The position numbers and the translations under genes are program-made. Positions 1,909 through 18,592 of a DNA stretch of 48,290 nucleotides are shown piece after piece. This DNA is from Promethearchaeota archaeon (GTDB lineage: Archaea; Asgardarchaeota; Lokiarchaeia; Sigyniarchaeales; SOKP01). The stretch covers positions 1 to 48,290 of the forward strand of contig JBHLMP010000029.1 in NCBI GenBank assembly GCA_048938025.1. Direction: 5' to 3'. The stretch's first letter is position 1; each line of letters starts with the position of its first letter. Under the pieces are notes generated by a model. That model saw only the letters and a list, made by a program, of their open reading frames with translations. It was not told the origin of the DNA and searched no databases.

Positions 1909-2175
1909 TTAACAAAAAGAGTTATCTTTTCTTCTTCTGACATCATTTTCAATGAATTCACTGAATTCCTTGTTATCTACATCAATAAATTCCCAGAACT
2001 CTTCATAGATATTTATTAATGCTATTTCTTTCTTTTTTTGATTATTGTTATTTTGAAGTTTCGATTTTCTCGGTTTATCTTCAAGATAATTTCCTTCTAT
2101 GATTAGGTTTTCAAAAAGATCATCGTTGGAATCATTAAAATCTTTGAATTTATTATTTTGATTATTTGAGCATTT
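1909..2175 (-). pseudogene. 5'-truncated paralog of 3909..4433 (C-terminal half only)
   Basis: Open frame KCSNNQNNKFKDFNDSNDDLFENLIIEGNY...IYEEFWEFIDVDNKEFSEFIENDVRRRKDNSFC*, bounded upstream by TAG with no ATG/GTG/TTG; near-identical to ~3930-4170. Confidence 0.75.
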
Positions 2176-2283
2176 CTATATGCTGAATATTCGGAATTTA
2201 ATCTAATTATCTTGGACAAAAATAATAAATATTTATTTATAATCTTTTTACATAAAAATCTATACATTTTTGATAAAAATTAA

Positions 2284-3762
2284 ATGAAATTAAAAATAAA
2301 AGTAAATATATTAATTTTAGGAATTTTTCTCGCTTTATCACTCATTGTTATCACTAATCACAATTTTAATAGTGATAAACGTTTAGAATATAGCGATAAA
2401 ATTAATTTAGATTTTAAAGATTTGAAACTCTCAAAACTATCGGGAAAAATTCATATTGACAATAATTGGACTGAGGCTAAGGATGCGGAGATATGTACAG
2501 GGAATGGTACGTATTCTGACCCTTACGTCATAGAAGATTTCGAAATAGATGGCGGAGGTTCGGGAAGTTGTATCTTGATTCAAAATTCTGATGTTTATTT
2601 TAGGATTGAAAATTGTACGGTCTACAATGCTGGAGGTGGCCAAAATGCGGGGATCAAATTATCTAATGTTACTAATTCTCAATTAACTGATAATAATTGT
2701 TCATCTAATTCCAGAGGAATATATTTAGAGAATATTTATAACAGTACTCTTTCGGGAAATACCGCGAATAATAATAACTATGGGATATATTTAGAGAGTA
2801 GTGGATTTAACAATGTTTCGGGAAATAATGTAAACTATAATGGTAATGATGGGATATATCTACACTATTGTTATAATAATAACGTTACAGAAAACAACGT
2901 TAGTTACAATGTCAATCTTGGGATACAATTATACTATAGTCATGATAACAACATTTCCGGAAACATTGCAAATAATAACACGGGGTGTGCGATATGGCTA
3001 GCTTATAGTAATAGCAATAATATTTTGGGAAATGTCGCTAATAACAACAATGTTGGTATATATTTATCTTATATTCAAAATAACACCGTTTCGGGAAATA
3101 CCGCAAATAACAACGATATTGGAATAACTTTAAGTCATAGTGGACCTAACGATGTTTTGGGAAACATCGCAAATAGCAACAGGGATCTTGGCATATATTT
3201 AATTATTAGTTCAAATAACACAGTTTCCGAAAATAATGTAAGTTATAATGATGATGGTGGGATATATCTATATTTTTGTTTTAATAATAATGTTACAGGA
3301 AACAACGTTAGTTACAATGATGATGGGATATCTTTATATTTTAATACTAATAACGAAATTTCGAGAAACAACGTTAGTTACAATCAGGATGCAGGGATCT
3401 TTTTAAGTGAAAGTGATTCTAACACTGTTTTGGGAAATGTCGCTAATAACAACAATAATGGGATGTATTTATACGATAGTTCTAAAAATGATATATCGGG
3501 AAATACCGCGAATAATAATAACTATGGGATATATTTAAAGAAAAGTAATTATAACATTGTTTCGGGAAATATCTTACTGGGAAATGATAAATGCATCGTA
3601 GAAGATAATTGTCAAGGAAATGAGTTTAGTGATAATGGTTCTTGCGAACCTTACCAATTAGGCGATGAAAAAGGAGAAATTCTTGGTTATAATCTATTCT
3701 TACTCCTTGGCATTTTATCCATGGTAACAATCCTAATAAGTAAAAAGCTAAAGAAATATTAA
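2284..3762 (+). CDS. Secreted right-handed parallel beta-helix (NosD/CASH) surface protein with Loki-CTERM-like anchor
   Basis: Signal peptide, GNGTYSDPYVIE motif, many ~22-aa GIYL..S.NN.VSGN repeats, C-terminal ILGYNLFLLLGILS..ILISKKLKK. Confidence 0.85.
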   Translation: MKLKIKVNILILGIFLALSLIVITNHNFNSDKRLEYSDKINLDFKDLKLSKLSGKIHIDNNWTEAKDAEICTGNGTYSDPYVIEDFEIDGGGSGSCILIQNSDVYFRIENCTVYNAGGGQNAGIKLSNVTNSQLTDNNCSSNSRGIYLENIYNSTLSGNTANNNNYGIYLESSGFNNVSGNNVNYNGNDGIYLHYCYNNNVTENNVSYNVNLGIQLYYSHDNNISGNIANNNTGCAIWLAYSNSNNILGNVANNNNVGIYLSYIQNNTVSGNTANNNDIGITLSHSGPNDVLGNIANSNRDLGIYLIISSNNTVSENNVSYNDDGGIYLYFCFNNNVTGNNVSYNDDGISLYFNTNNEISRNNVSYNQDAGIFLSESDSNTVLGNVANNNNNGMYLYDSSKNDISGNTANNNNYGIYLKKSNYNIVSGNILLGNDKCIVEDNCQGNEFSDNGSCEPYQLGDEKGEILGYNLFLLLGILSMVTILISKKLKKY

Positions 3763-3908
3763 TTTTTACATTCTCTCAATTAATTATTTATTATTCACCT
3801 CAATTTTTAATTGGCTGATTAAATACTTGATCCTGATTAACTTTCTAAGACCACTTCGAATACATTCAATGATAACCTTATGGTGAGACCTGTATCAGAA
3901 CTCTGGAA

Positions 3909-4433
3909 TCAGAATAAATAAAATGAGTTATATTTCCTTCTTCTGACATCATTTTCAATGAATTCACTGAATTCCTTGTTATCTACATCAATAAATTCCC
4001 AAAATTCTTCATACATATCTTTTAAGGTCATTTCTTTCTTTTCTTGAATATTTTCATTTTCAATTTTCGACTTCCTTAGATTATATTCAACATAATTTCC
4101 TTCTATAATTAAATTTTCAAAAAGCTCATCGTCTGAATCATTGAATCCTTTAAATTTGTTATTTTTTGTTCCACCTTTTTTATTTTCAAATTCAAAATCT
4201 ACTTTTTGGTAACCTCGTACGTAAAATTTTTTATCAACGAATGCTTGAAATTGGTGTTCACATACCAATCCTTTTGCTATTGACATTGTAGTTAGCTGTT
4301 TTGCTTGATTGATGACTGATTTAGGAACTTTTAACACTTTCTTAGATTTACACACAGGACAAATAAATTGGATCTTCATATACTCATTTAAAGTGCCAAT
4401 ACTTACTTTATTACTAACTTTTGTCACTGCCAT
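3909..4433 (-). CDS. Hypothetical zinc-ribbon protein
   Basis: CPVC...CEHQFQAFVDK motif. Confidence 0.65.
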   Translation of the reverse strand: MAVTKVSNKVSIGTLNEYMKIQFICPVCKSKKVLKVPKSVINQAKQLTTMSIAKGLVCEHQFQAFVDKKFYVRGYQKVDFEFENKKGGTKNNKFKGFNDSDDELFENLIIEGNYVEYNLRKSKIENENIQEKKEMTLKDMYEEFWEFIDVDNKEFSEFIENDVRRRKYNSFYLF

Positions 4434-7720: not shown

Positions 7721-8899
7721 ATGAAAGCTGTTGAATTATCGGCTGTGTGGGATCCCAAACCTGAATATAAAACTAGCTCTAAAGATATTAATGGAAAATT
7801 AACATATTTAGGTTCTCAAGTTTGGAGAAATCCAACAGTAAAAATTGTTGATAAAAATAGCCCTCAAATTAAGTCCAATGAAGTGTTAATCAAAGTAAAA
7901 AGATGTGGAATATGTGGTTCCGATGTACATATGGCTCAAACATATAATGATGGATATATTTATTACCCTGGTTTAACAGCTTTCCCTGTGACTCTTGGAC
8001 ATGAATTTGCAGGTGAAATTGTTGAAGTTGGGAATCAAGCAATTAATAAAAGAACTGGTAAACTTTATGAAGTGGGAGAACCTGTGACTGTTGAAGAAAT
8101 GGTATGGTGTGGTGAATGTAAACCTTGTTGTGATGGTTATCCTAACCATTGTGAACGATTACAAGAAATTGGTTTTTCCATTGATGGCGCATATGCTGAA
8201 TACATTGCTGTACCAGCAAAATTATGCTGGAGTTTGAAAAAATTAGAAAACCAATATAATGATATTTTTAAAATTGGTAGTTTGGTTGAGCCAACTTCAG
8301 TTGCATATAATGCTGTTATAGAAAGAGGTGGTGGAATTCGACCAGGTGAGAATGTGATTATTTTAGGAGCTGGTCCTATTGGTTTAGCAGCAGTAAAAAT
8401 TTTAAAGAGTGCTGGAGCTGCTGTATGTATTGTATCAGAACCAGAAGAAAGTCGAGCATCGTTAGCGAAAAAATTGGGTGCTGATTACGTAATCAATCCT
8501 TTAAAAGAAGACTTTGTAGAAGCAACAAAAAAGTACACTGATAGTGAGGGAGCTGCCCTCTATCTTGAAGCTACGGGATTACCTGATATTGTTACAGATG
8601 ATATACAAAATGCAATATGGGAATGTAAATCAGTTAATAGTACGGTGGTTATTGTAGCTAGAGCCGAACAAAAAATGCCGGTATGTGGTGAATATTTCCA
8701 AGTAAGGAGAGCTCGCATCGTAGGATCTCAAGGTCATTCGGGACATGGTAATTTTCCAAATGTAATAAATTGTATGGCAAATGGAATGGATTTAACTCCA
8801 ATAATCACAAAAGAAATAAAAATTGACGAAGTACCTGAAAATCTTAAACTTCTGCAAACTGATAAAGAAAATTGTAAGATTTCTATTAGAATAAGTTAA
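7721..8899 (+). CDS. iolM: scyllo-inosose 3-dehydrogenase (IolM-like)
   Basis: MDR motifs plus characteristic WDPKPEY..GKLTYLGSQVWRNP N-terminus and GSQGHSGHG. Confidence 0.85.
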   Translation: MKAVELSAVWDPKPEYKTSSKDINGKLTYLGSQVWRNPTVKIVDKNSPQIKSNEVLIKVKRCGICGSDVHMAQTYNDGYIYYPGLTAFPVTLGHEFAGEIVEVGNQAINKRTGKLYEVGEPVTVEEMVWCGECKPCCDGYPNHCERLQEIGFSIDGAYAEYIAVPAKLCWSLKKLENQYNDIFKIGSLVEPTSVAYNAVIERGGGIRPGENVIILGAGPIGLAAVKILKSAGAAVCIVSEPEESRASLAKKLGADYVINPLKEDFVEATKKYTDSEGAALYLEATGLPDIVTDDIQNAIWECKSVNSTVVIVARAEQKMPVCGEYFQVRRARIVGSQGHSGHGNFPNVINCMANGMDLTPIITKEIKIDEVPENLKLLQTDKENCKISIRIS

Positions 8900-9027
8900 A
8901 TTTGTTTATTACAACTGTTTTTTCTTATTAAGAAAGTATTAATACAATTTTACAATCAAAACTTTTTTATATCATTTTCATCTATTTTTGTTATTCAAAA
9001 ATAATAAAATAAGAAGAGATCGATATT

Positions 9028-9633
9028 ATGAATGAAAATCAAGATGAGGAAGAAGGTTTTGAATTAAAGGAAGAAGCTGAAAGTAGAGAGCAAATACTTG
9101 AAAACAAGAAAAAGGAGGAACAAATTGCTTTAAAAAGAACTGAAACCTGTCACTTTAAAACTGAACATCCAGAATCTCTAGAAATTACGCAAAATGAACC
9201 CTTTTATAGAATTCCGTTGACTAATATTATAGAAAGTGAGGATGTTTTTTATATTCTTATGGAATTACCAGGATTAGACAAAAAGAATGTTAAAATTTCC
9301 TTACAAGAAGGAATTCTAGAATTAATTGGAGAAAAATCAATAAAAAACAAAGAAAAAAAGGAAGAGAAAAAGGAAAAAGAAAAAGAGAAAGAGAAAAAAG
9401 AAAAAAAGGATGAAAAGAAAGATAAAGACAAGAAAAAAGAAAAATATAAAGAAATAAAGGGTGACTATTTAAGAAGAGAAATTCGAACCGCTAACTTCTT
9501 TAGATGTTTTCACTTACCTGAAGATATAACTCCTGAAGAAATTGATGCAAGCTTTAGAAATGGTATCCTACAGTTAAAAATTCCGAAAAAATCAGCAAAG
9601 ATTAGTGAAAAGAAAGTAATAGAAATTAAATAA
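9028..9633 (+). CDS. Hsp20/alpha-crystallin small heat shock protein with K/E-rich insert
   Basis: ELPGLDKKNVKI, F.RCFHLP, ASFRNGILQLKIPK, C-terminal IEIK. Confidence 0.9.
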   Translation: MNENQDEEEGFELKEEAESREQILENKKKEEQIALKRTETCHFKTEHPESLEITQNEPFYRIPLTNIIESEDVFYILMELPGLDKKNVKISLQEGILELIGEKSIKNKEKKEEKKEKEKEKEKKEKKDEKKDKDKKKEKYKEIKGDYLRREIRTANFFRCFHLPEDITPEEIDASFRNGILQLKIPKKSAKISEKKVIEIK

Positions 9634-9714
9634 ATTCTATTACCCATAATTCTCTTATTTTTTATTGTTCTAATTAATTTTTTTAAATTTTTAATAAGAT
9701 CTATCATTTTAATT

Positions 9715-10527
9715 CTATAAAATTAATCGAAGATATTCAGAAGATTCTCTAGCGACTTCCTCAAACGAGGGTTTCATAATTGTTTCAATTGAAGCAAACC
9801 CATTATAACCTGCATTTTTAAATATATTTAAGAAGGTTCTAAAATCAAAATGTCCTGTACCAGGTGCTCTCCGGGTGCAATCAGCTAAATGAATATGAGA
9901 AACATAATGAGCAATTTCGTTTAAATAATCCCAAATAAAACCGGGATCTTCTTCCAAATAAATATGATAAGAATCAACTAATAATCTCAAGGAATTAGAA
10001 CCTATCTCTTTTATTAATTCTACCGATTCTGAGATAGTATTATAAGAATCCATTTCGAATCGATTTATAGGTTCAATTAATAATTCTACATTGTTATTTT
10101 CTGCTAACCTACAACATTCTTTTAAGGATGATTTAATATTTGTTTTCTCTTTTTTTTGACTACTTTCAAAAGTATAACGACCCCTAATTAATCCAATAAT
10201 GACTTTTGATTGTACTTCACGGGCAAATTCAACGTATTTCTCAACTCTCTCAATTGCTTTTCTCCTTATTGATTCATCAATATGACCAAGTGAATAACCA
10301 AAACGAATAAAAGTATTCCCTGTTCCCAGTGCTGGTATTTCTAATTCATAAGAATCTTTAATTTCATTTATTTTTTTAACATCAATTTTTTCTGGTTCTA
10401 GTAAGCTTAATTCAACTCCATCATAATCTAGTGGCTTTAAAAAGTTACAGATAGTAGAGAATTTTTTACTTATTTCTTCTTGATTTTGTTTGGATTCGTT
10501 AAGAGTAGATACAATACTCAATCGCAT
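9715..10527 (-). CDS. iolO: 5-keto-L-gluconate epimerase (IolO-like, xylose isomerase-like TIM barrel)
   Basis: ALGTG, IIGLIRGR, IEPINRFE, DSYH, HLAD..R.APGTGHFDF; context with iolM/iolN. Confidence 0.75.
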   Translation of the reverse strand: MRLSIVSTLNESKQNQEEISKKFSTICNFLKPLDYDGVELSLLEPEKIDVKKINEIKDSYELEIPALGTGNTFIRFGYSLGHIDESIRRKAIERVEKYVEFAREVQSKVIIGLIRGRYTFESSQKKEKTNIKSSLKECCRLAENNNVELLIEPINRFEMDSYNTISESVELIKEIGSNSLRLLVDSYHIYLEEDPGFIWDYLNEIAHYVSHIHLADCTRRAPGTGHFDFRTFLNIFKNAGYNGFASIETIMKPSFEEVARESSEYLRLIL

Positions 10528-10544
10528 ATAATATTTAATTATAT
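10525..10544. repeat. att-like direct repeat, left copy (overlaps iolO start codon)
   Basis: Identical to 13016-13035; internal dyad ATATAAT-N5-ATTATAT. Confidence 0.7.
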
Positions 10545-10646
10545 AAAGATAATTAAATATAATTATTAAGACAAGACATATTTATTGGTTCTTATAAAAT
10601 CAAATCTAACAATACATAAGAGTTTTAAGGATTTTAATTTTCAAAA

Positions 10647-10826
10647 TCACCAAAAATCTATTCTTCCAATTTTGGTGAAATTACCCGAGAAATTCGAATC
10701 GAATTTTTCGGCATACTTTAATCTAATGATATGATAACACCACTTTTGAATAATATAATGGTTTGAAACAATATACAAGTGGACTTTAGATTAAAACTTG
10801 AAAAATCATATATTGATATTTTTCAA
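10647..10826. other. Four adjacent inverted repeats (possible structured RNA/DNA)
   Basis: TCACCAAAA/TTTTGGTGA; CCGAGAAATTCG/CGAATTTTTCGG; TTTAATCTAA/TTAGATTAAA with inner CCACTT/AAGTGG; TTGAAAAAT/ATTTTTCAA. Confidence 0.45.
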
Positions 10827-10845
10827 ATTTTCAAATATGTTATCT

Positions 10846-11019
10846 TTATAGAGTAGAACCCAAAAAATATGTTATATGACTTATATTTTCATGAACAGAA
10901 ATACCACTACCAGTCCATCTATATCCAAGAGTTTTGAAAAAGGTTTCTATTTTTTTATCCAATTCGGTATCTATACTATGTTCTACTTTATACTTTATTA
11001 TTAAATCCCCATTCTCCAT
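10846..11019 (-). CDS. Small hypothetical protein (57 aa, not in ORF track)
   Basis: MENGDLIIKYKVEHSIDTELDKKIETFFKTLGYRWTGSGISVHENISHITYFLGSTL*; preceded by the same motif as the neighbouring gene. Confidence 0.55.
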   Translation of the reverse strand: MENGDLIIKYKVEHSIDTELDKKIETFFKTLGYRWTGSGISVHENISHITYFLGSTL

Positions 11020-11050
11020 TTTTTTTTTCTTTTTGTTTAATTTTATTTTT

Positions 11051-11087
11051 ATTGGTGTTAAGGAAACCTAACACACTAACAACAAAA
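11051..11087. repeat. Hairpin-containing repeat, copy 1
   Basis: ATTGGTGTTAAGGAAACCTAACACACTAACAACAAAA; 29/37 identical to 12208-12244. Confidence 0.7.
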
Positions 11088-11110
11088 TAGAAATTTATTT
11101 AATTATTCAA

Positions 11111-12157
11111 TTATTCAATATCTTTCCTTTTTCTCCTGTAAAATACATAAATTCCTATACTAACAGCTATACCAATTATCAAAACAATTCCAAATACCAA
11201 TTGCCAGACTATAAATGCAGAAGCAGATGCTCCTATTAGATTACCATCTTTATCATAGAATCTATTTCCGTATATAGTAATATTATGACAATTTTCTAAT
11301 GTAATTGAAAATCCATCAGAAGATGTTTTTGGTTCTTCGTAATTATGTCCACCAAGCTCACAACCATATAAATCATTATTTGTTATTGTAGAATCATTAA
11401 CAGTGTAAAAATAGATTCCAGTTTCTACAACATAACCATATGTCGTTTCTATTCTATTATTATCAATGTAAATATTCTCAGCATCATAGACAAGTATTCC
11501 ACTGGCATAATTATATATATCATTATTAGAAATATTAACATTTTTTACATTAGAAACACCATAATTAATACCAAAATCTACTCCATGAATTGCAATAGCA
11601 GCTCCTTTTCCAGTACCCTCAGCATAATGAGAACCTATAAACTTACAATTATCTATTTTTATTGTATGTGTTATGTCTTCTAAACTACTTATCCCATTTC
11701 CTAAACTAATTCCTAAAGTACAATTTATAATCGTACAATTTTCTATTAATCCAAAAGTTCCATTTCCAATATATATTCCAGCAAATGTATGATGCCCAAC
11801 AGGAGCAATATAGTTGCTAACCGTAACATTTCGAATTATGAAATGTTCAACATTTTCAATCCAAATATGAGCTGTCATATTTTCATTTGTCACATGGATT
11901 CCTTCGATAATATATGGATCTTCTTCTGTTCCATTTCCACTACACCAGTCGTAATTCTCAACGTAATAACTCCAATTAGGATAATTACCATAAGGATAAT
12001 GATCACCAATGTTAATTGAGAAATTAACTGGAATTAAATCACCTGATGTAGATCCTTGAGATTTTTCTAGTATGTTGATTGTAGTTAAATTTCTGGTATT
12101 TGATATAGAACTGAAAATCATCATAACAAATACCATTACAACTAAACTTCCAATCAA
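11111..12157 (-). CDS. Membrane-anchored parallel beta-helix surface protein (start possibly ATA at 12172)
   Basis: Signal peptide, WCSGNGTEEDPYIIE, Asn/Ile-rich repeats, C-terminal TM followed by RRKRK. Confidence 0.8.
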   Translation of the reverse strand: MIGSLVVMVFVMMIFSSISNTRNLTTINILEKSQGSTSGDLIPVNFSINIGDHYPYGNYPNWSYYVENYDWCSGNGTEEDPYIIEGIHVTNENMTAHIWIENVEHFIIRNVTVSNYIAPVGHHTFAGIYIGNGTFGLIENCTIINCTLGISLGNGISSLEDITHTIKIDNCKFIGSHYAEGTGKGAAIAIHGVDFGINYGVSNVKNVNISNNDIYNYASGILVYDAENIYIDNNRIETTYGYVVETGIYFYTVNDSTITNNDLYGCELGGHNYEEPKTSSDGFSITLENCHNITIYGNRFYDKDGNLIGASASAFIVWQLVFGIVLIIGIAVSIGIYVFYRRKRKDIE

Positions 12158-12207
12158 TTTTTTATTTTTTATAATTTTTGCCTCTTTTTTATTTAAATTT
12201 TATTTCT

Positions 12208-12244
12208 ATTGGTGCTCAGTAAATCTGGCACACTTACAATAAAA
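12208..12244. repeat. Hairpin-containing repeat, copy 2
   Basis: ATTGGTGCTCAGTAAATCTGGCACACTTACAATAAAA; stem GTGC-T-CAG/CTG-GCAC. Confidence 0.7.
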
Positions 12245-12414
12245 AAATATTTAATTATATAGTTTTCGACTTTTTTGTGTTATATTTTTCCCTCTCTTCT
12301 TTAGAAAATTTTAACTAATCATTTAAGTAAATTTTTATATCTATTTGTTAATGATTTCTACATTTCTAACTTTAATATGTCAAAAACTATAAGTAGAATT
12401 TTTGAAATGTATGT

Positions 12415-12963
12415 TTACAGACATCTCTTATAATTAATATACATATATCTAATCAATACCCCTTCATACATAACCATTAATAAGGTTCTCACCTTTAAAC
12501 AACAATGTTTCAAAATTAATTCTAAGTCATCTCTTGTTATTAAATCAGTTTTACTCAGTACCTTCTTTTCTTCTTTGAATCTTTTTTTACCAATTGCTTT
12601 TACTAAATCTTTTCTATCAGAGTATTTCAAATATTTTTTAATTGCAATCAAACGATGATTCTTTGATTTGTTTGATAAATTATTAAACCACTCACATTTT
12701 AAGAAATCATTGATATACTCTGTTGTTAATTGATTTACATCTACATTTTTTATAGGTTGAAGTTTTTCTTCTTTTACTCTTCGTCTTCTATTTCTTTGTT
12801 CATCAGTTTCAAACAATTTACAAATTGTTATTAAATAAGCTAACTTGGTTCTATTGGATAATTTGCGTAATTCCTTATTGTAATATTCATCTATGTTACT
12901 CTCCCCATTCCTAAGTTTGAAAAGATACTTTTCTATTTCAGAAATTAAATTTTGATTAGTCAT
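12415..12963 (-). pseudogene. Truncated tyrosine recombinase/integrase (core-binding domain only)
   Basis: LS.RTKLAYL..., LSNKSKNHRLIAIKKYLKY, DLITRDDLELILKHC..KVRTLLMVMYEG, then breaks at the first catalytic Arg box; no HxxR or Tyr. Confidence 0.7.
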
Positions 12964-13015
12964 TTTTCTAAATATTATAAATTAATGAACCTATTTAAAT
13001 ATATTTGATAACCCT

Positions 13016-13035
13016 CATATAATATTTAATTATAT
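13016..13035. repeat. att-like direct repeat, right copy
   Basis: Identical to 10525-10544; about 50 bp upstream of the integrase ATG. Confidence 0.7.
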
Positions 13036-13112
13036 GATGATTAAAAAGTTTAACATATATGTACCCCTTTGATAATTATTACAATTCATTTTAATTGAGA
13101 TGATTATTAAAA

Positions 13113-14078
13113 ATGAGTAAGTGGAATTTACCACCGAAAGGTGGACATATGGATTTGCCTGATGGGATATATCTCCAGACAATGTCAATCTTAGAAATTA
13201 ATGAACGCTTAAAAAAAAATGATGTTATAATTATTCCAGTTGGTTCCACTGAAAATCATGGCCCCGCTGCTTGTATTGGAGAAGATACATTTTTAGTAAC
13301 AAGGATGGCTGAATTGATAGCTCAAAAAACAGGTTGTACTGTTGCTGAACCAGTTTGGTATGGAAGCCATCCTTATCATCATTTAGGAATGCCAGGTTCA
13401 ATTATTGTACCAGAAGAAATTTTTAAGGGTTTGCTGCGAGCTGTGATGGCAGGTTGTTGGAATATGGGTTTTAGGAAAATGATTTTGTTAAATGGACATG
13501 GGCAAGAGTATGTTATACCTTCTGCTATCCATGAGTTTGCAAAGAATTATCAATTGCCAATGTTAATTTGTAATGTGAATTGGTATCATGCTATACCAAA
13601 ATATTGTATGGATGAAGAACATGGAGGACCATTTGAAACTCCTTTTATACATGCAGATGAAGCAGAGACGTCATTTTCATTGGTATTATTTCCTGAAATG
13701 ATTAAAGTAGATAAGGCATGTGATAATGAACCAATCGGTTGGATGCCAGATGGTCATGTAGACAAAGCTGGAAATATTTATCAAAGACCAATAAAATGGT
13801 ATGGACAGGTAGGATTTGGCCCAATAGAAGTAAGTGCATATCCAGAAGGGAATGTAGGATGCCCAAGCAAAGCCAAACTAGAAAAAGGGCTTCCAGGGAT
13901 CGAATCACTCTTGGATTATCTAGAAAAATTAGTCAATGACATTTTGAAAATATTTCCTCCAGGGAAATTACCACCAGTAGAAGGTATTACGCAGAGAGAT
14001 CCTAAAGAAGTTGCAAAATATATCAAGGGTCCTTTAAATGGGGGAAAAAGTATATATGAATTAAGATATCCACCTTAA
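13113..14078 (+). CDS. iolN: 3-dehydro-scyllo-inosose hydrolase (IolN, creatininase family)
   Basis: IPVGSTENHGP, GEDTFLVTRMAE, LNGHGQE, ETPFIHADEAETS, DKAGN..RPI.WYG. Confidence 0.88.
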   Translation: MSKWNLPPKGGHMDLPDGIYLQTMSILEINERLKKNDVIIIPVGSTENHGPAACIGEDTFLVTRMAELIAQKTGCTVAEPVWYGSHPYHHLGMPGSIIVPEEIFKGLLRAVMAGCWNMGFRKMILLNGHGQEYVIPSAIHEFAKNYQLPMLICNVNWYHAIPKYCMDEEHGGPFETPFIHADEAETSFSLVLFPEMIKVDKACDNEPIGWMPDGHVDKAGNIYQRPIKWYGQVGFGPIEVSAYPEGNVGCPSKAKLEKGLPGIESLLDYLEKLVNDILKIFPPGKLPPVEGITQRDPKEVAKYIKGPLNGGKSIYELRYPP

Positions 14079-14111
14079 TAAAAAAAGTAATAAATAGTAT
14101 GAATTTGAGAA

Positions 14112-14618
14112 TTATTTCATGCCAAACCACTGACCGCCATTTAGATCTTCAAAAAAATAATCTCTGTCATCTTTTTTTGCGATTTTTTCTCCTGCTTCTT
14201 GTGCTAATTTAAAATATTTCTTAAAATCATTTTTATTTTTTGATAATGCTGAAGCTCGAGCCATAGCTTCATAAGCAAATCCTAAATCAAAATCTCTTAT
14301 ATTATGTTCTTCTGTTAATCCCAAACAAACTCTTGCATGATAAAGTGCAGGTTCTGCTCTTTGTAAAATTGTATAAACACGTGCAATCTGCCATTCACCT
14401 CTCTGAAGATTAAGAGGAGTTCCCTTTCCTTTAGAAACTAATATACCCCAATGGTATCTTGAAGCATGAGCTGTGTGAATCATATTTATTTCTTCTTCTG
14501 GACTCCGTTCTTTTTTATCAATTAAATCCCATGTTTGATTAAAACAACCTTTAGCCATTTTTTTATGGTATTTAAGATCTAAGTCCTCATTTTCCTTAGG
14601 CATAATTAGAATCACCAT
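14112..14618 (-). CDS. Conserved hypothetical helical protein
   Basis: FNQTWDLIDK..MIHTAHASRYHW..RGEWQIARVY..AYEAMARA, a widespread uncharacterised family. Confidence 0.7.
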   Translation of the reverse strand: MVILIMPKENEDLDLKYHKKMAKGCFNQTWDLIDKKERSPEEEINMIHTAHASRYHWGILVSKGKGTPLNLQRGEWQIARVYTILQRAEPALYHARVCLGLTEEHNIRDFDLGFAYEAMARASALSKNKNDFKKYFKLAQEAGEKIAKKDDRDYFFEDLNGGQWFGMK

Positions 14619-14788
14619 TTAGTTTTATTAATCCTCAATATTTTAATTTTACAGTTTTAATTTAAAAAAAAATATTTAAAACAATAATCTAAACACCTTT
14701 AAAGAACCTATGTAGATCTTCTACTCTTAAAATAGATTTTAAGACAATAAAAATAGCTTTTTAAAATTAGGAAAAATAAAAAAAAGAT

Positions 14789-15271
14789 TTATATTTTAGC
14801 ACCACAATAAGCGCAAAATTGTGCTGATTCTTTACTTATAGGGGTTCCACAATTATAACAATATTTACCCCTTTCTTCTGAGCTAACAGGCTCTTTTTGA
14901 ATTGATACATGTTTTATTTGCCCTGTTTTTGTTGAAAATTTACCAATTAATTGCCCTGATGCTTTCAGATCTAGTATAATTGCTCGAACATCCTTTCTAG
15001 AAATTCCAGTTCTCATGCTAACATCTTCTATTGAAGCATCTGGATTTGTTTGGAATTCTTGCAAGACTACATTCCGCAATTTACTCCTATTAGCTATCGC
15101 AACAATTTGGCTGGATAAAATAGCAGCACCAATACCAATCGCAAAAAACCCCCACCATGACCACTTATCCCATGGGATAAAGCTAGTAATACCCCACCAT
15201 AAAAAAGCACCAGCGATTATGAATGTGCATATTGAGACACTATCATTATATTGATTTTTTTCATATTTCAT
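14789..15271 (-). CDS. Membrane protein with winged helix and C-terminal zinc ribbon
   Basis: Two TM segments, SIEDVSMRTGISRKDVRAII, CYNCG...FCAYCG. Confidence 0.7.
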   Translation of the reverse strand: MKYEKNQYNDSVSICTFIIAGAFLWWGITSFIPWDKWSWWGFFAIGIGAAILSSQIVAIANRSKLRNVVLQEFQTNPDASIEDVSMRTGISRKDVRAIILDLKASGQLIGKFSTKTGQIKHVSIQKEPVSSEERGKYCYNCGTPISKESAQFCAYCGAKI

Positions 15272-15342
15272 TTTATTATACCTAAGTATTTTATATGATA
15301 TTAGTTATTAGAATATAAATATTTTGAAAAGTCCAATTTTTA

Positions 15343-15696
15343 TCAGTTTGTTTTTATACATGCATTAATTACGTTAAAGACATTGCTAAAATCAATCTGA
15401 TCTTCCATTAATATAATAACAATTTTTTCTAAGATTTTAATTGATAAGATATAAAAATTATCTGAATGAATTACGTTAAAATCCGGACTGTGAATTCCAA
15501 TTTCTGATGTTACTTCTTCAGCTAACTCGTACAATTGAGACATATTTAATCCTATTGAAGATTTATTAAATTCATCACTAATGTAAGATTTTATTATTGC
15601 GCCATTTTCAGAGGTAATTAATAAAAAGTAGACTCCTGAACCTAATTCCTTTAGGATATTATCCAAAACTAGGTCAACGTCTAAACAAACAGTCAT
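15343..15696 (-). CDS. Roadblock-like domain protein
   Basis: 117 aa; helix, LLITSENGAII, helix, three strands. Confidence 0.55.
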   Translation of the reverse strand: MTVCLDVDLVLDNILKELGSGVYFLLITSENGAIIKSYISDEFNKSSIGLNMSQLYELAEEVTSEIGIHSPDFNVIHSDNFYILSIKILEKIVIILMEDQIDFSNVFNVINACIKTN

Positions 15697-15846
15697 TGTT
15701 ATATATATTAATTTTTTTATTTATAATTCTAATTGAATATCAATTATTCAAGTTAAATTAACAGATTAAAACTAACTTTCCTATGAGATTAATTTAGGAT
15801 AAACTGTTTTAGTAGTTTTAATTTTTTATGGATAGAAAAGAGATTT

Positions 15847-16665
15847 TTAGATTATAAAATATTGCTCAATTATATTTTCAAATTCATGAAATGGCGTAAG
15901 ATCTCCATTAAAATCTTTTACATGAATCTCATAATACTTATCTACAAATTCTTCAGATATTAATTCAATATATTTTTGCATCTTCTCTGTTTTTTTTTTT
16001 TTTTCGACTAAATAAGCAAAAATAACATCATTTTTAAAATTCATATAAAAATTTGCTTTCCCGACGTTGATTGCTTCAAGCTTAAATCCAGATTCCTTAC
16101 CACCAATATAGTCTTGCGAAAAACATAAAATCGCAGATATGAAACCAGCGATTTGAACTTTGTTTTGTGAGATACAATTCTCTTTTTTGCTAACTTTTGA
16201 ATAATATAAGAATCCTGCTTCATCAACAATAAACATCGCCAACATTCCTTCAACTTTAGGAATCTTAATTATTGTATGGCAAATCTTTTCTATTTCTAAA
16301 CTTGAAATATTTGAGCATATTCTCTGAAATAAGCTTTTTGAAAAATGATAAAGTTTTGTATAATCCATCCGATTTTCTTTATTATCTATATAAATTATTA
16401 CTAATATATCTCCCTGTTTCTTATCAAAAAAGTGGATATAGATTGTAAAGTTATCAATTAAATCCTTAATATAACCTTGTTTTTTTTCGATAATTCTCTC
16501 TTTATATAAATCAATGAACTTTTGAATACATTCAATTGTCATGCCTTTATGGAAAAGAACTTCATGTTTTCCTTCTGGATTTATCTCAGAGAGACTGAAA
16601 CTTTCCATCTGAAAGATCAGAGAAGATTTATCCAAATTTTGAAAATTATCTTCCAAACTTATCAA
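15847..16665 (-). CDS. Longin-like domain protein (Asgard type)
   Basis: C-terminal MFIVDEAGFLYYSK..IAGFISAILCFSQ..EEFVDKY..FNGDLTPFHEF. Confidence 0.6.
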   Translation of the reverse strand: MISLEDNFQNLDKSSLIFQMESFSLSEINPEGKHEVLFHKGMTIECIQKFIDLYKERIIEKKQGYIKDLIDNFTIYIHFFDKKQGDILVIIYIDNKENRMDYTKLYHFSKSLFQRICSNISSLEIEKICHTIIKIPKVEGMLAMFIVDEAGFLYYSKVSKKENCISQNKVQIAGFISAILCFSQDYIGGKESGFKLEAINVGKANFYMNFKNDVIFAYLVEKKKKTEKMQKYIELISEEFVDKYYEIHVKDFNGDLTPFHEFENIIEQYFII

Positions 16666-18148: not shown

Positions 18149-18592
18149 TTGAAAACTAAAATGGTTGATGAATCTTTATTAAGTGATATAAAAGCAATTA
18201 TGGATAAAGGAGCTAGCGGTGCAGCACCTGCTGACACTCTGAAATATTACGAATTTATCAAGCAGGTCTCGAAAGAAAACGAGGATCTTAAAGAAGAACT
18301 CGAAGATATGGATATTGCAATTCAAATGATCATTACCGATAAAGAGGCTAAATATTGGCTTACAGTAAAGGAGGGAACTCTCGATTATGGCGAGGGAGAA
18401 GTTGATAATCCTTCATTTACTATGTCCTCAACTCTTGAAACTGGTGCTGGTATCCTAATGGGTGAAGTTGATGCGACTAGTGCTTATATGGCTGGTGATA
18501 TCACCGTAGAAGGTAATCTTCAAGATGCTATGGCTTTTCAAGAGATTGTAGAACTTGCTGGAGAAGCTCTCGAAGATCTTCTTGAAGATTAA
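18149..18592 (+). CDS. Acidic SCP2 domain protein (start likely ATG 18161)
   Basis: GEVDATSAYMAGDITVEGNLQDAM. Confidence 0.88.
   Translation: MKTKMVDESLLSDIKAIMDKGASGAAPADTLKYYEFIKQVSKENEDLKEELEDMDIAIQMIITDKEAKYWLTVKEGTLDYGEGEVDNPSFTMSSTLETGAGILMGEVDATSAYMAGDITVEGNLQDAMAFQEIVELAGEALEDLLED

Follow-up and report, generated by a model that had tools for sequence, protein, structure and literature searches.

What separates the iolO-like gene from iolN in this Lokiarchaeon, and how did it come to lie there? The stretch analysed, hereafter the window, is 48,290 nucleotides (nt) long and is the entire contig JBHLMP010000029.1 (C23) of the Promethearchaeota archaeon assembly GCA_048938025.1 (G000; 3,523,697 bases, 88 contigs, 29.3% GC). 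In it the two divergent genes are held apart by an interval bounded by two exact copies of a 20-bp sequence, CATATAATATTTAATTATAT. A sequence-only reading had taken this interval for an integrative element inserted at the start codon of iolO by site-specific integration, its ends marked by an attachment-like (att-like) repeat. Our analysis leads to the same view: with a probability of about 0.85, we take the interval for what is left of a small integrative element. It belongs to a family of elements that, in the genomes searched, does not extend beyond a single Lokiarchaeial (Promethearchaeia) family. Empty sites, an integrase fragment and conserved arms near the repeats all support integration of the site-specific kind. 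The features on which the argument depends are the following.

9715-10527, minus strand: iolO-like gene, xylose-isomerase-type TIM barrel, intact, 270 amino acids (aa); Pfam AP_endonuc_2, 6.1e-39; NCBIfam IolO, 233.1 bits, cut-off 300
10525-10544: left core (attL), exact 20-mer; a single homologous copy in the empty sites of genomes G012 and G018
10545-13015, minus strand: inserted element body, 2,471 bp, all three open reading frames (ORFs) directed toward iolO; absent from G012 and G018, single copy in G000
12454-12963, minus strand: N-terminal 170 codons of a tyrosine recombinase; 88.8% identity by tblastn of residues 1-170 of the homolog P0001 (alignment A2)
13016-13035: right core (attR), exact 20-mer, then native iolO-iolN intergenic DNA; the flank from 13036 aligns to G012 right after its single core
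13113-14078, plus strand: iolN, 3-dehydro-scyllo-inosose hydrolase, creatininase fold; NCBIfam NF041098, 510.8 bits, cut-off 245; Pfam Creatininase, 9.9e-46

The empty site in relatives and in metagenomes

We screened 54 genomes of the genus (53 besides G000), 161 of the class and, for the two flanking genes, 41 related genomes, in 15 of which (G000 counted) the iolO-like gene and IolN were each found. The spacer between their start codons, 2,585 bp in the window, measures 96 bp in G012, 94 bp in G018 and 212 bp in G011. G012 and G018, with one copy of the core each, do not keep the 2.5-kb spacer, which the sequence-only reading had named as the comparison to make. When one repeat and the interior, together 2,491 bp, are taken out of the window, 94 bp remain between the start codons, which is the head-to-head arrangement, under 100 bp, that had been predicted for the locus without the interval.

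The comparison is most direct with G012, the closest relative, whose flanking genes are 95-96% identical at the amino acid level. There the left flank is followed by CATATAATATATAATTATATAT, containing one core-like copy, and then by GATGATTAAAAAG, which corresponds to the right flank of the window. By blastn, window 8000-15600 is collinear with G012 over 8213-10557 (95.1% nt identity) and 13016-14086 (92.6%), and in G012 the two alignments overlap at the core only. These observations support the insertion of an element into the iolO-iolN spacer, the two closest relatives carrying both flanking genes having kept what would be the empty site.

In eight more distant genomes of the genus the spacer is 1,001-1,017 bp long and is occupied by a conserved gene of about 273 aa. 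This gene lies at L012:2064-2879 in G005 and in the equivalent spacers of G015, G020, G008, G021, G014, G016 and G009; it has no NCBIfam match and is missing in G000, G012, G018 and G011. Elsewhere, iolO and iolN stand on separate contigs (G001) or in a different arrangement (G030), or IolN alone was found (G010).

Metagenome contigs of four runs (X1 to X4, X1 being the probable source run) were also compared with the window. In X2 a 431-nt contig joins 10546 to 13036, and in X3 a contig goes on after 10545 with TGATGATTAAAAAG, the right flank; both are empty alleles, differing from the flanks of G000 at 11 of 185 and 13 of 160 letters respectively. In X1 the element is a single unitig (10516-13060) of depth 22.5 between flanking unitigs of depth 32.2 and 46.5, and a contig with "TA" inserted after 13030 has a depth of 14.5 out of 37. 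Contig depths are not cell fractions; those of X1 would fit a source sample in which the filled and the empty allele occur together.

A second stretch specific to G000 was noticed further right, at 14087-14728 (642 bp): it is absent from G012, where 14086 adjoins 14729, and X3 and X4 contigs also depart from the window after 14086. Within it, an ORF of 168 aa (14112-14618, minus strand) gave no match in Pfam.

The 20-bp repeat

A search confirmed the two exact copies of the 20-mer and found no other, either in the 3.52-Mb assembly or across the 54 genomes of the genus; the repeat is therefore not a sequence common in the genome. The dyad described within it reads ATATAAT-ATTTA-ATTATAT (7-5-7). 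On the minus strand the last three bases of the attL core (10525-10527) are the ATG of the iolO-like gene. The site is not a tRNA gene, as had been proposed: there is none in 8000-16000, and no Rfam family in 9500-14200.

The significance of the repeat was estimated from 200 shuffles of the window, in which the composition was kept per 100-nt block and direct repeats were scored at a spacing of 300-10,000 nt. A direct repeat of at least 20 nt appeared in one shuffle of the 200 (mean 0.005 per shuffle), while 14-mers were frequent (mean 13.3 per window). Genome-wide, 180 repeat seeds (at least 20 nt, same spacing) are present in G000, mostly within paralogous genes. In the window itself several exact repeats, 20-65 nt long and spaced by 405-2,006 nt, lie in 1931-3937; they probably belong to tandem paralogous or internally repetitive genes.

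Imperfect versions have to be read with care. A third site of the window, 12241-12260, has three mismatches to the 20-mer, and its final 15 nt (12246-12260) are exact, which is the partial copy already reported; matches with at most three mismatches are expected 0.27 times per window by chance. On other contigs of G000 two sites have two mismatches. Versions with one or two mismatches occur in 42 of the 54 genus genomes and a reversed control pattern matches many genomes too, so that these near-matches carry no weight. A copy with two mismatches near the integrase of G069, in coding-looking DNA and without a partner, was likewise treated as chance.

A broken integrase and its family

The ORF nearest to the right core (12415-12963, minus strand, 182 aa) starts 52 nt inside it, in agreement with the truncated tyrosine integrase that the sequence-only reading placed about 50 bp within the right copy. 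Its residues 1-170 align to PF00589 proteins of 415-447 aa at up to 89% identity, the best homolog being P0001 (428 aa, 89% identical to the fragment); past codon 170, twelve unrelated codons lead to 12415. Eleven longer homologs of the fragment, of 325-444 aa, are all PF00589 in precomputed annotation. The fragment alone gives a sub-threshold Pfam match to the SAM-like integrase N-domain (19.2 bits for a threshold of 22.3). P0001 matches PF00589 (E 1.6e-14), a PHROG integrase (2.3e-24) and the XerC-like structure 4a8e (4.3e-7); against NCBIfam its best model is recomb_XerA_Arch, at 64.8 bits for a cut-off of 220, and the integron integrase reaches 30.1 for 265.

The place of the break is precise. 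In alignment A2 the window protein departs right after YEG(A/V)L, one residue ahead of the first near-invariant arginine, R171. In the intact relatives R171, K198, H264, R267, W290 and Y300 are nearly invariant, and we take them to be the catalytic residues. As the divergence precedes the first invariant arginine, the entire catalytic domain is lost; accordingly the PF00589 catalytic domain feature is absent from the window copy and present in the intact relatives. Residues 171-428 were not found anywhere in the G000 assembly by tblastn of P0001, whose sole other match below E 1e-5 is a distant paralog on contig C33, and the assembly holds no intact integrase of this family. With every catalytic residue removed the element cannot move by itself, so that its description as non-autonomous holds.

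Complete genes nevertheless exist in the environment. The X3 contigs that match the window rightward from 12453 have other letters before it, and these translate as the continuation of an intact integrase, which indicates that relatives with a complete gene exist in those sediments. Searched with the fragment, the family was found in 9 of the 54 genus genomes; searched with P0001 (E at most 1e-30), it was found in 12 of the 161 class genomes, all within one family. No relative of P0001 was found in viral contigs. Among the 15 matching places listed, five have stop codons and a sixth is the truncated copy of the window. Copies with stop codons or fragmentary were noted at G016:C76, G014:C121, G018:C19, and G043:C82 and C40. 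Since several copies are broken, decay after integration seems common in this family. Judged by sequence, the window copy is a decayed member of the tyrosine-recombinase integrative elements.

Intact integrases of the family carry a C-terminal CxxC...CxxC segment resembling a zinc ribbon (A2 columns about 330-350; about residues 331-349 of P0001), followed by a variable coiled-coil-like tail. Such a segment and tail are unusual for PF00589 recombinases.

Arms and relatives of the element

Outside the integrase the element retains two further conserved parts:

10576-10673, minus strand: integrase-distal non-coding arm, matched by blastn in related elements
12964-13006, minus strand: non-coding arm on the integrase side, with the promoter region of the integrase; homologous by blastn to G051 and G043 as far as 13006, and set beside the upstream regions of 8 metagenome loci

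DNA homology with relatives whose integrase is intact covers 12453-13006, ending 10 nt short of attR, and 10576-10673, beginning about 30-50 nt from attL. Because the homology ends so close to the two cores, each of the conserved arms is situated a short way within its 20-bp repeat; an attP split by integration would be expected to show such paired arms flanked by repeats. The distal arm matches L090 (74.5% over 102 nt, E 7.5e-13), L038 (82% over 56 nt, E 2.9e-8) and L071 (78% over 46 nt), and holds a hairpin-like inverted repeat, TCACCAAAA...TTTTGGTGA. The GC content of the element is 23-31% in 400-nt windows, compared with 32-38% in iolN.

At about 2.5-3.7 kb, the window element and the relatives with an intact integrase are very small, and their cargo varies. 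On G051:C140 (L071) an intact integrase of 434 aa comes first, then an ORF of 53 aa, then a membrane protein of 425 aa (weak match, transglutaminase-like) and lastly one of 92 aa. The metagenome contig L090 carries a 438-aa integrase with ORFs of 71 and 158 aa in about 2.5 kb. G043:C40 is a decayed copy, with a 66-aa integrase fragment and a 276-aa zinc-ribbon membrane protein. The contig G051:C140 ends at 18534, about 40 nt past the distal arm, where the second att junction is expected; heterogeneity between alleles may have interrupted the assembly here. Around five intact-integrase loci in other genomes of the genus (about 10 kb per side where the contig allowed) we found no direct repeat of at least 20 nt, only 15-16-mers, and called no boundaries; five short metagenome contigs with relatives showed no terminal overlap that would indicate circularity.

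How the locus may have formed, and what speaks against it

These observations fit a simple course of events. The element would have existed as a circle with an attP, the core of which agreed with 20 bp at the host site, and the host attB would have consisted of the 17 nt upstream of iolO together with its ATG. The tyrosine recombinase of the element would then have joined attP and attB, duplicating the core as the present attL and attR. Afterwards, as the sequence shows, integrase codons 171 to about 430 were removed by an internal deletion or rearrangement that broke the gene at 12453/12454. The patchy distribution of the integrase family, its decayed copies, the differing cargo and a cargo gene without a close ortholog (see below) support the behaviour of a mobile element.

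Several points weigh on the other side. Contigs spanning an empty site were found, as the sequence-only reading had suggested looking for, but the circular junction sought along with them was not: none of the contigs of the four runs contains the back-joint, and contigs drop rare forms. The attR junction has no exact match in viral contigs, and the attP core is presumed to be identical with the 20-mer. In the empty alleles (G012, X2, X3, and X1 by inference) the core ends in TATATAT, not TATAT, and so exceeds attR by 2 nt. Sites that were never occupied, or (TA)n slippage variants, therefore account for these alleles better than excision of the window copy does. The sequence-only reading had advised inspecting the flanks of full-length integrase homologs for the same core; the relatives L087-L092 appear to use different and shorter ones, about 11 nt by eye (TATTTTTATAA-like). 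A 20-bp core placed in a poorly conserved promoter would be unexpectedly specific. Finally, a direct repeat around an insert is also what a target-site duplication looks like, a possibility to which we return.

Cargo genes and internal repeats

Between the distal arm and the integrase fragment lie the cargo and a pair of repeats, D1:

10846-11019, minus strand: 57-aa ORF of unknown function (ORF list)
11019-11099: D1 copy 1, directly upstream of the 57-aa ORF; 81 nt, 73% identical to copy 2
11111-12157, minus strand: beta-helix (NosD-like) protein, 348 aa, parallel beta-helix; Pfam Beta_helix 1.2e-13, NosD 6.4e-9
12176-12256: D1 copy 2, upstream of the beta-helix gene and covering most of the 15-nt partial core (repeat comparison)
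12261-12453: segment of unknown origin, 193 bp, from D1 copy 2 to the integrase breakpoint, without homology to intact integrase loci

The 57-aa ORF has no Pfam or PHROGs match and no paralog in G000. The beta-helix protein, with hydrophobic N- and C-terminal segments, is a membrane-anchored and strain-specific cargo: no close ortholog of its gene was found in the 53 other genus genomes, the best match reaching 36-43% identity over part of the length. The two D1 copies bracket this gene and each precedes a minus-strand ORF. The 15-nt partial core stands at the outer end of copy 2, and copy 1 has a weaker version only; being inside an 81-nt repeat, the partial core need not be the remnant of an att site.

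X3 again provides variants. In one contig only four other letters stand between 11055 and 12217, and it so represents a variant without the beta-helix gene; two more diverge after 12245. Contig summaries are compatible both with the gain of the beta-helix gene as a cassette and with its loss by recombination between the D1 copies, and do not decide between the two. The segment 12261-12453 has 0 differences in X3 and X4 contigs; a 32-nt match of 12276-12307 to G043:C82 was dropped as low-complexity, coding-like sequence. In two related elements the cargo is likewise bracketed by imperfect repeats of 29-40 nt with 79-80% identity (L071, 11241-11280 and 13318-13357; L038, 157-185 and 1285-1313), which hints at a recurrent module boundary in the family.

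Alternative explanations

The partial core bears most on the alternative that survives best, which we nevertheless hold to be rather unlikely: a composite or tandem array, made of a beta-helix part (10545-12245) and a part with the broken integrase (12261-13015) split by the partial core, or else a beta-helix cassette placed at a secondary att-like site. An exact 15-nt copy, in a site of a kind expected just 0.27 times per window, would be explained in this way, as would the two X3 contigs that diverge after 12245, exactly where the partial copy starts, and the X3 contig lacking the beta-helix gene; besides, tandem integrations at one site are described for Thaumarchaeota (PMC6563490). Set against these, the partial copy lies within the 81-nt repeat and may belong to a duplicated promoter or leader module, the sequences on its two sides (12158-12245 and 12261-12453) are unlike the conserved arms of the family, and direct repeats of 14 nt are common in the shuffles.

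A target-site duplication produced by a transposase- or casposase-type insertion, the integrase fragment being a passenger, accounts equally well for one target copy when the site is empty and two around the insert, and would fit with related elements not sharing the 20-bp core. We find it improbable. Neither a transposase nor Cas1 is present among the three ORFs of the element (Pfam, PHROGs), and no convincing terminal inverted repeats were seen, the 41-nt pair I1 (73% identity) being mostly the palindromic core itself. The integrase start 52 nt from the junction, together with two arms conserved in relatives, has the anatomy of an attP. Moreover, tyrosine recombinases are not known to duplicate their target, and duplications of 20 bp are longer than usual.

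An integration of the "suicidal" type known from Sulfolobus spindle-shaped viruses (SSV), with att inside the integrase gene and the 182-aa ORF as Int(N), is suggested by an incomplete integrase ORF at one end of the element, and split integrases are described as widespread in archaea (PMC7253208). We regard this reading as refuted: the core is 52 nt upstream of the ATG and outside the ORF, the C-terminal half is neither at the other end nor elsewhere in the assembly, the integrated relatives G051, L090 and L088 keep intact genes of 434-438 aa, and the break at 12453 is not beside a core copy.

A chance AT-rich repeat in an old, vertically inherited spacer, conceivable in a genome of 29% GC with other isolated repeats of at least 20 nt, is equally refuted by the empty sites of G012, G018 and the metagenome contigs, by the shuffles (1 in 200) and by the uniqueness of the repeat. 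An integron was rejected as well, given the low score of the integrase model and the position of the D1 repeats upstream of co-oriented genes.

iolO, iolN and the displaced upstream block

Two further features concern the flanking genes:

7721-8899, plus strand: IolM; NCBIfam 502.2 bits, cut-off 450
13040-13061: conserved intergenic block ATTAAAAAGTTTAACATATATG, presumed native TATA box/B recognition element (BRE) of iolO; invariant in G000, G012 and G018

Of the gene names given from the sequence, that of iolN stands, its score lying above the cut-off, and that of iolO stands in part: IolO is the best NCBIfam match, with full-length coverage, yet it remains under the cut-off, which IolM and IolN exceed. 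"iolO-like" is for this reason the safer name. The gene was matched over residues 1-270 in 12 genus genomes, with a conserved start codon. The attribution to a Thermotoga-type inositol catabolism comes from the names of the NCBIfam models (IolM, IolN, IolO); a literature search brought up nothing relevant on the Thermotoga IolM/N/O pathway.

The block ATTAAAAAGTTTAACATATATG is invariant in the three species while the surrounding spacer varies. In the empty configuration its complement, TTTTTAAT, is located at -29 to -22 of the iolO ATG, and no G-rich stretch is found within the 17 nt preceding this ATG. TTTTTAAT fits an archaeal TATA box that would serve a leaderless or near-leaderless iolO transcript. 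In the filled allele the block is 2.49 kb away from iolO, and the end of the element supplies TTTAATTA at about the native distance of the TATA-like sequence from the ATG. The two junctions are alike, with 11 identical nucleotides of the 18 past the core (82% over 38 nt when the core is included), and the iolO ORF and the 17 nt before its ATG are intact. iolO would now have to be transcribed from this AT-rich element end, or by read-through from the co-oriented genes of the element, and its expression could differ accordingly between the two alleles.

Two considerations temper this proposal. We infer the promoter displacement from conservation in three species and from position only. In addition, the upstream profile of 1,504 long ORFs of G000 has a Shine-Dalgarno-like G peak at -14 to -7 (G about 25% at -11 to -9) and only a slight excess of TATA-like hexamers at -35 to -26, which suggests mostly leadered mRNAs in this Lokiarchaeon. 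As most genes show this peak, a leaderless iolO is not the default expectation.

Comparison with known systems

The closest likeness is with the integrated elements of Thaumarchaeota (Krupovic et al. 2019, PMC6563490). There the median att is 17 bp, and of the 68 elements with defined sites 39 occupy tRNA genes, 15 lie between genes and 14 in the 3'-distal part of a gene; the majority are "cryptic integrated elements", whose boundaries were verified by empty sites and of which many copies are inactivated. The window element shares with these cryptic elements a tyrosine recombinase, short direct repeats, a non-tRNA site as is frequent among them, and verification by empty sites. It differs in the placement of the core, which covers a start codon and its 5' flank whereas the protein-gene targets in Thaumarchaeota are 3'-distal (PMC6563490). 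It differs also, as far as descriptions can be likened, in its size of about 2.5-3.7 kb, common to its intact relatives, and in its Asgard host.

Among Asgard archaea, integrated elements of Atabeyarchaeia such as Yucahu-i have tyrosine integrases and an 11-bp AT-rich motif, AATTAACTTAT (Valentin-Alvarado et al. 2024, PMC11529989). The Asgard host, the tyrosine integrase, the short AT-rich attachment motif and the tracking of integrated forms in population metagenomes are points in common; by its description Yucahu-i carries 11 ORFs, a helicase among them, and also occurs in circular form, while the window element has three ORFs, no replication gene and a dead integrase (PMC11529989). Heimdallarchaeal elements are described as integrating beside tRNA genes (PMC8813620), and a 2026 preprint on viruses of Asgard enrichments reports no integrases in its own Asgard viruses (10.64898/2026.08.12.739948).

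P0001 itself resembles the archaeal XerA-type recombinases: PDB 4a8e is its closest solved structure and recomb_XerA_Arch its best model. The score, far below the cut-off, indicates that it is not a XerA. Proteins of the P0001 type are about 140 aa longer, with the C-terminal CxxC...CxxC segment and tail, and stand in mobile elements, not at a chromosome dimer-resolution locus.

Bacterial cis-mobilisable elements (CIMEs), like other att-flanked remnants in bacteria that are devoid of an integrase, keep intact attL and attR around a cargo without a working recombinase of their own, and for CIMEs mobilisation in trans has been demonstrated. With identical cores, both arms and no working recombinase, the window element would be a candidate for such mobilisation. 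Prophages acting as regulatory switches, or active lysogeny, offer another parallel: in Listeria the comK prophage alters the expression of a host gene and excises reversibly thanks to a working integrase. The window copy differs from these switches in having no working integrase, and the empty alleles that were found do not look like the outcome of its excision.

Meaning of the insertion

The locus holds a decayed representative of an already known type of archaeal integrative element, notable for its exact placement on a start codon, its small size and its documented empty alleles. We did not find this family of Lokiarchaeial mini-elements named in a non-systematic selection of the literature. 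It is a tempting but doubtful idea that it represents an undescribed minimal family (about 2.5-3.7 kb) with a zinc-ribbon integrase, two non-coding arms and exchangeable membrane-protein cassettes, inserting at gene starts in such a way that the outward end rebuilds a promoter; the alleles co-occurring in the sediment would then be natural regulatory variants of an inositol-catabolism gene.

The event is of an ordinary kind, seen very clearly, and the known workings of such elements are unchanged by it. What the locus offers is a clean and fully bounded site-specific integration outside tRNA genes in an Asgard archaeon, its empty site being documented in sister species as well as in environmental contigs. 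Behind it stands, it seems, a family of very small elements that bear an integrase and a variable surface-protein cargo, present among the genomes searched in Lokiarchaeia only. Finally, nature supplies here two alleles that differ by 2.5 kb between a metabolic gene and its conserved upstream block; once transcript data can be had, the pair could serve to find promoters in organisms difficult to cultivate.

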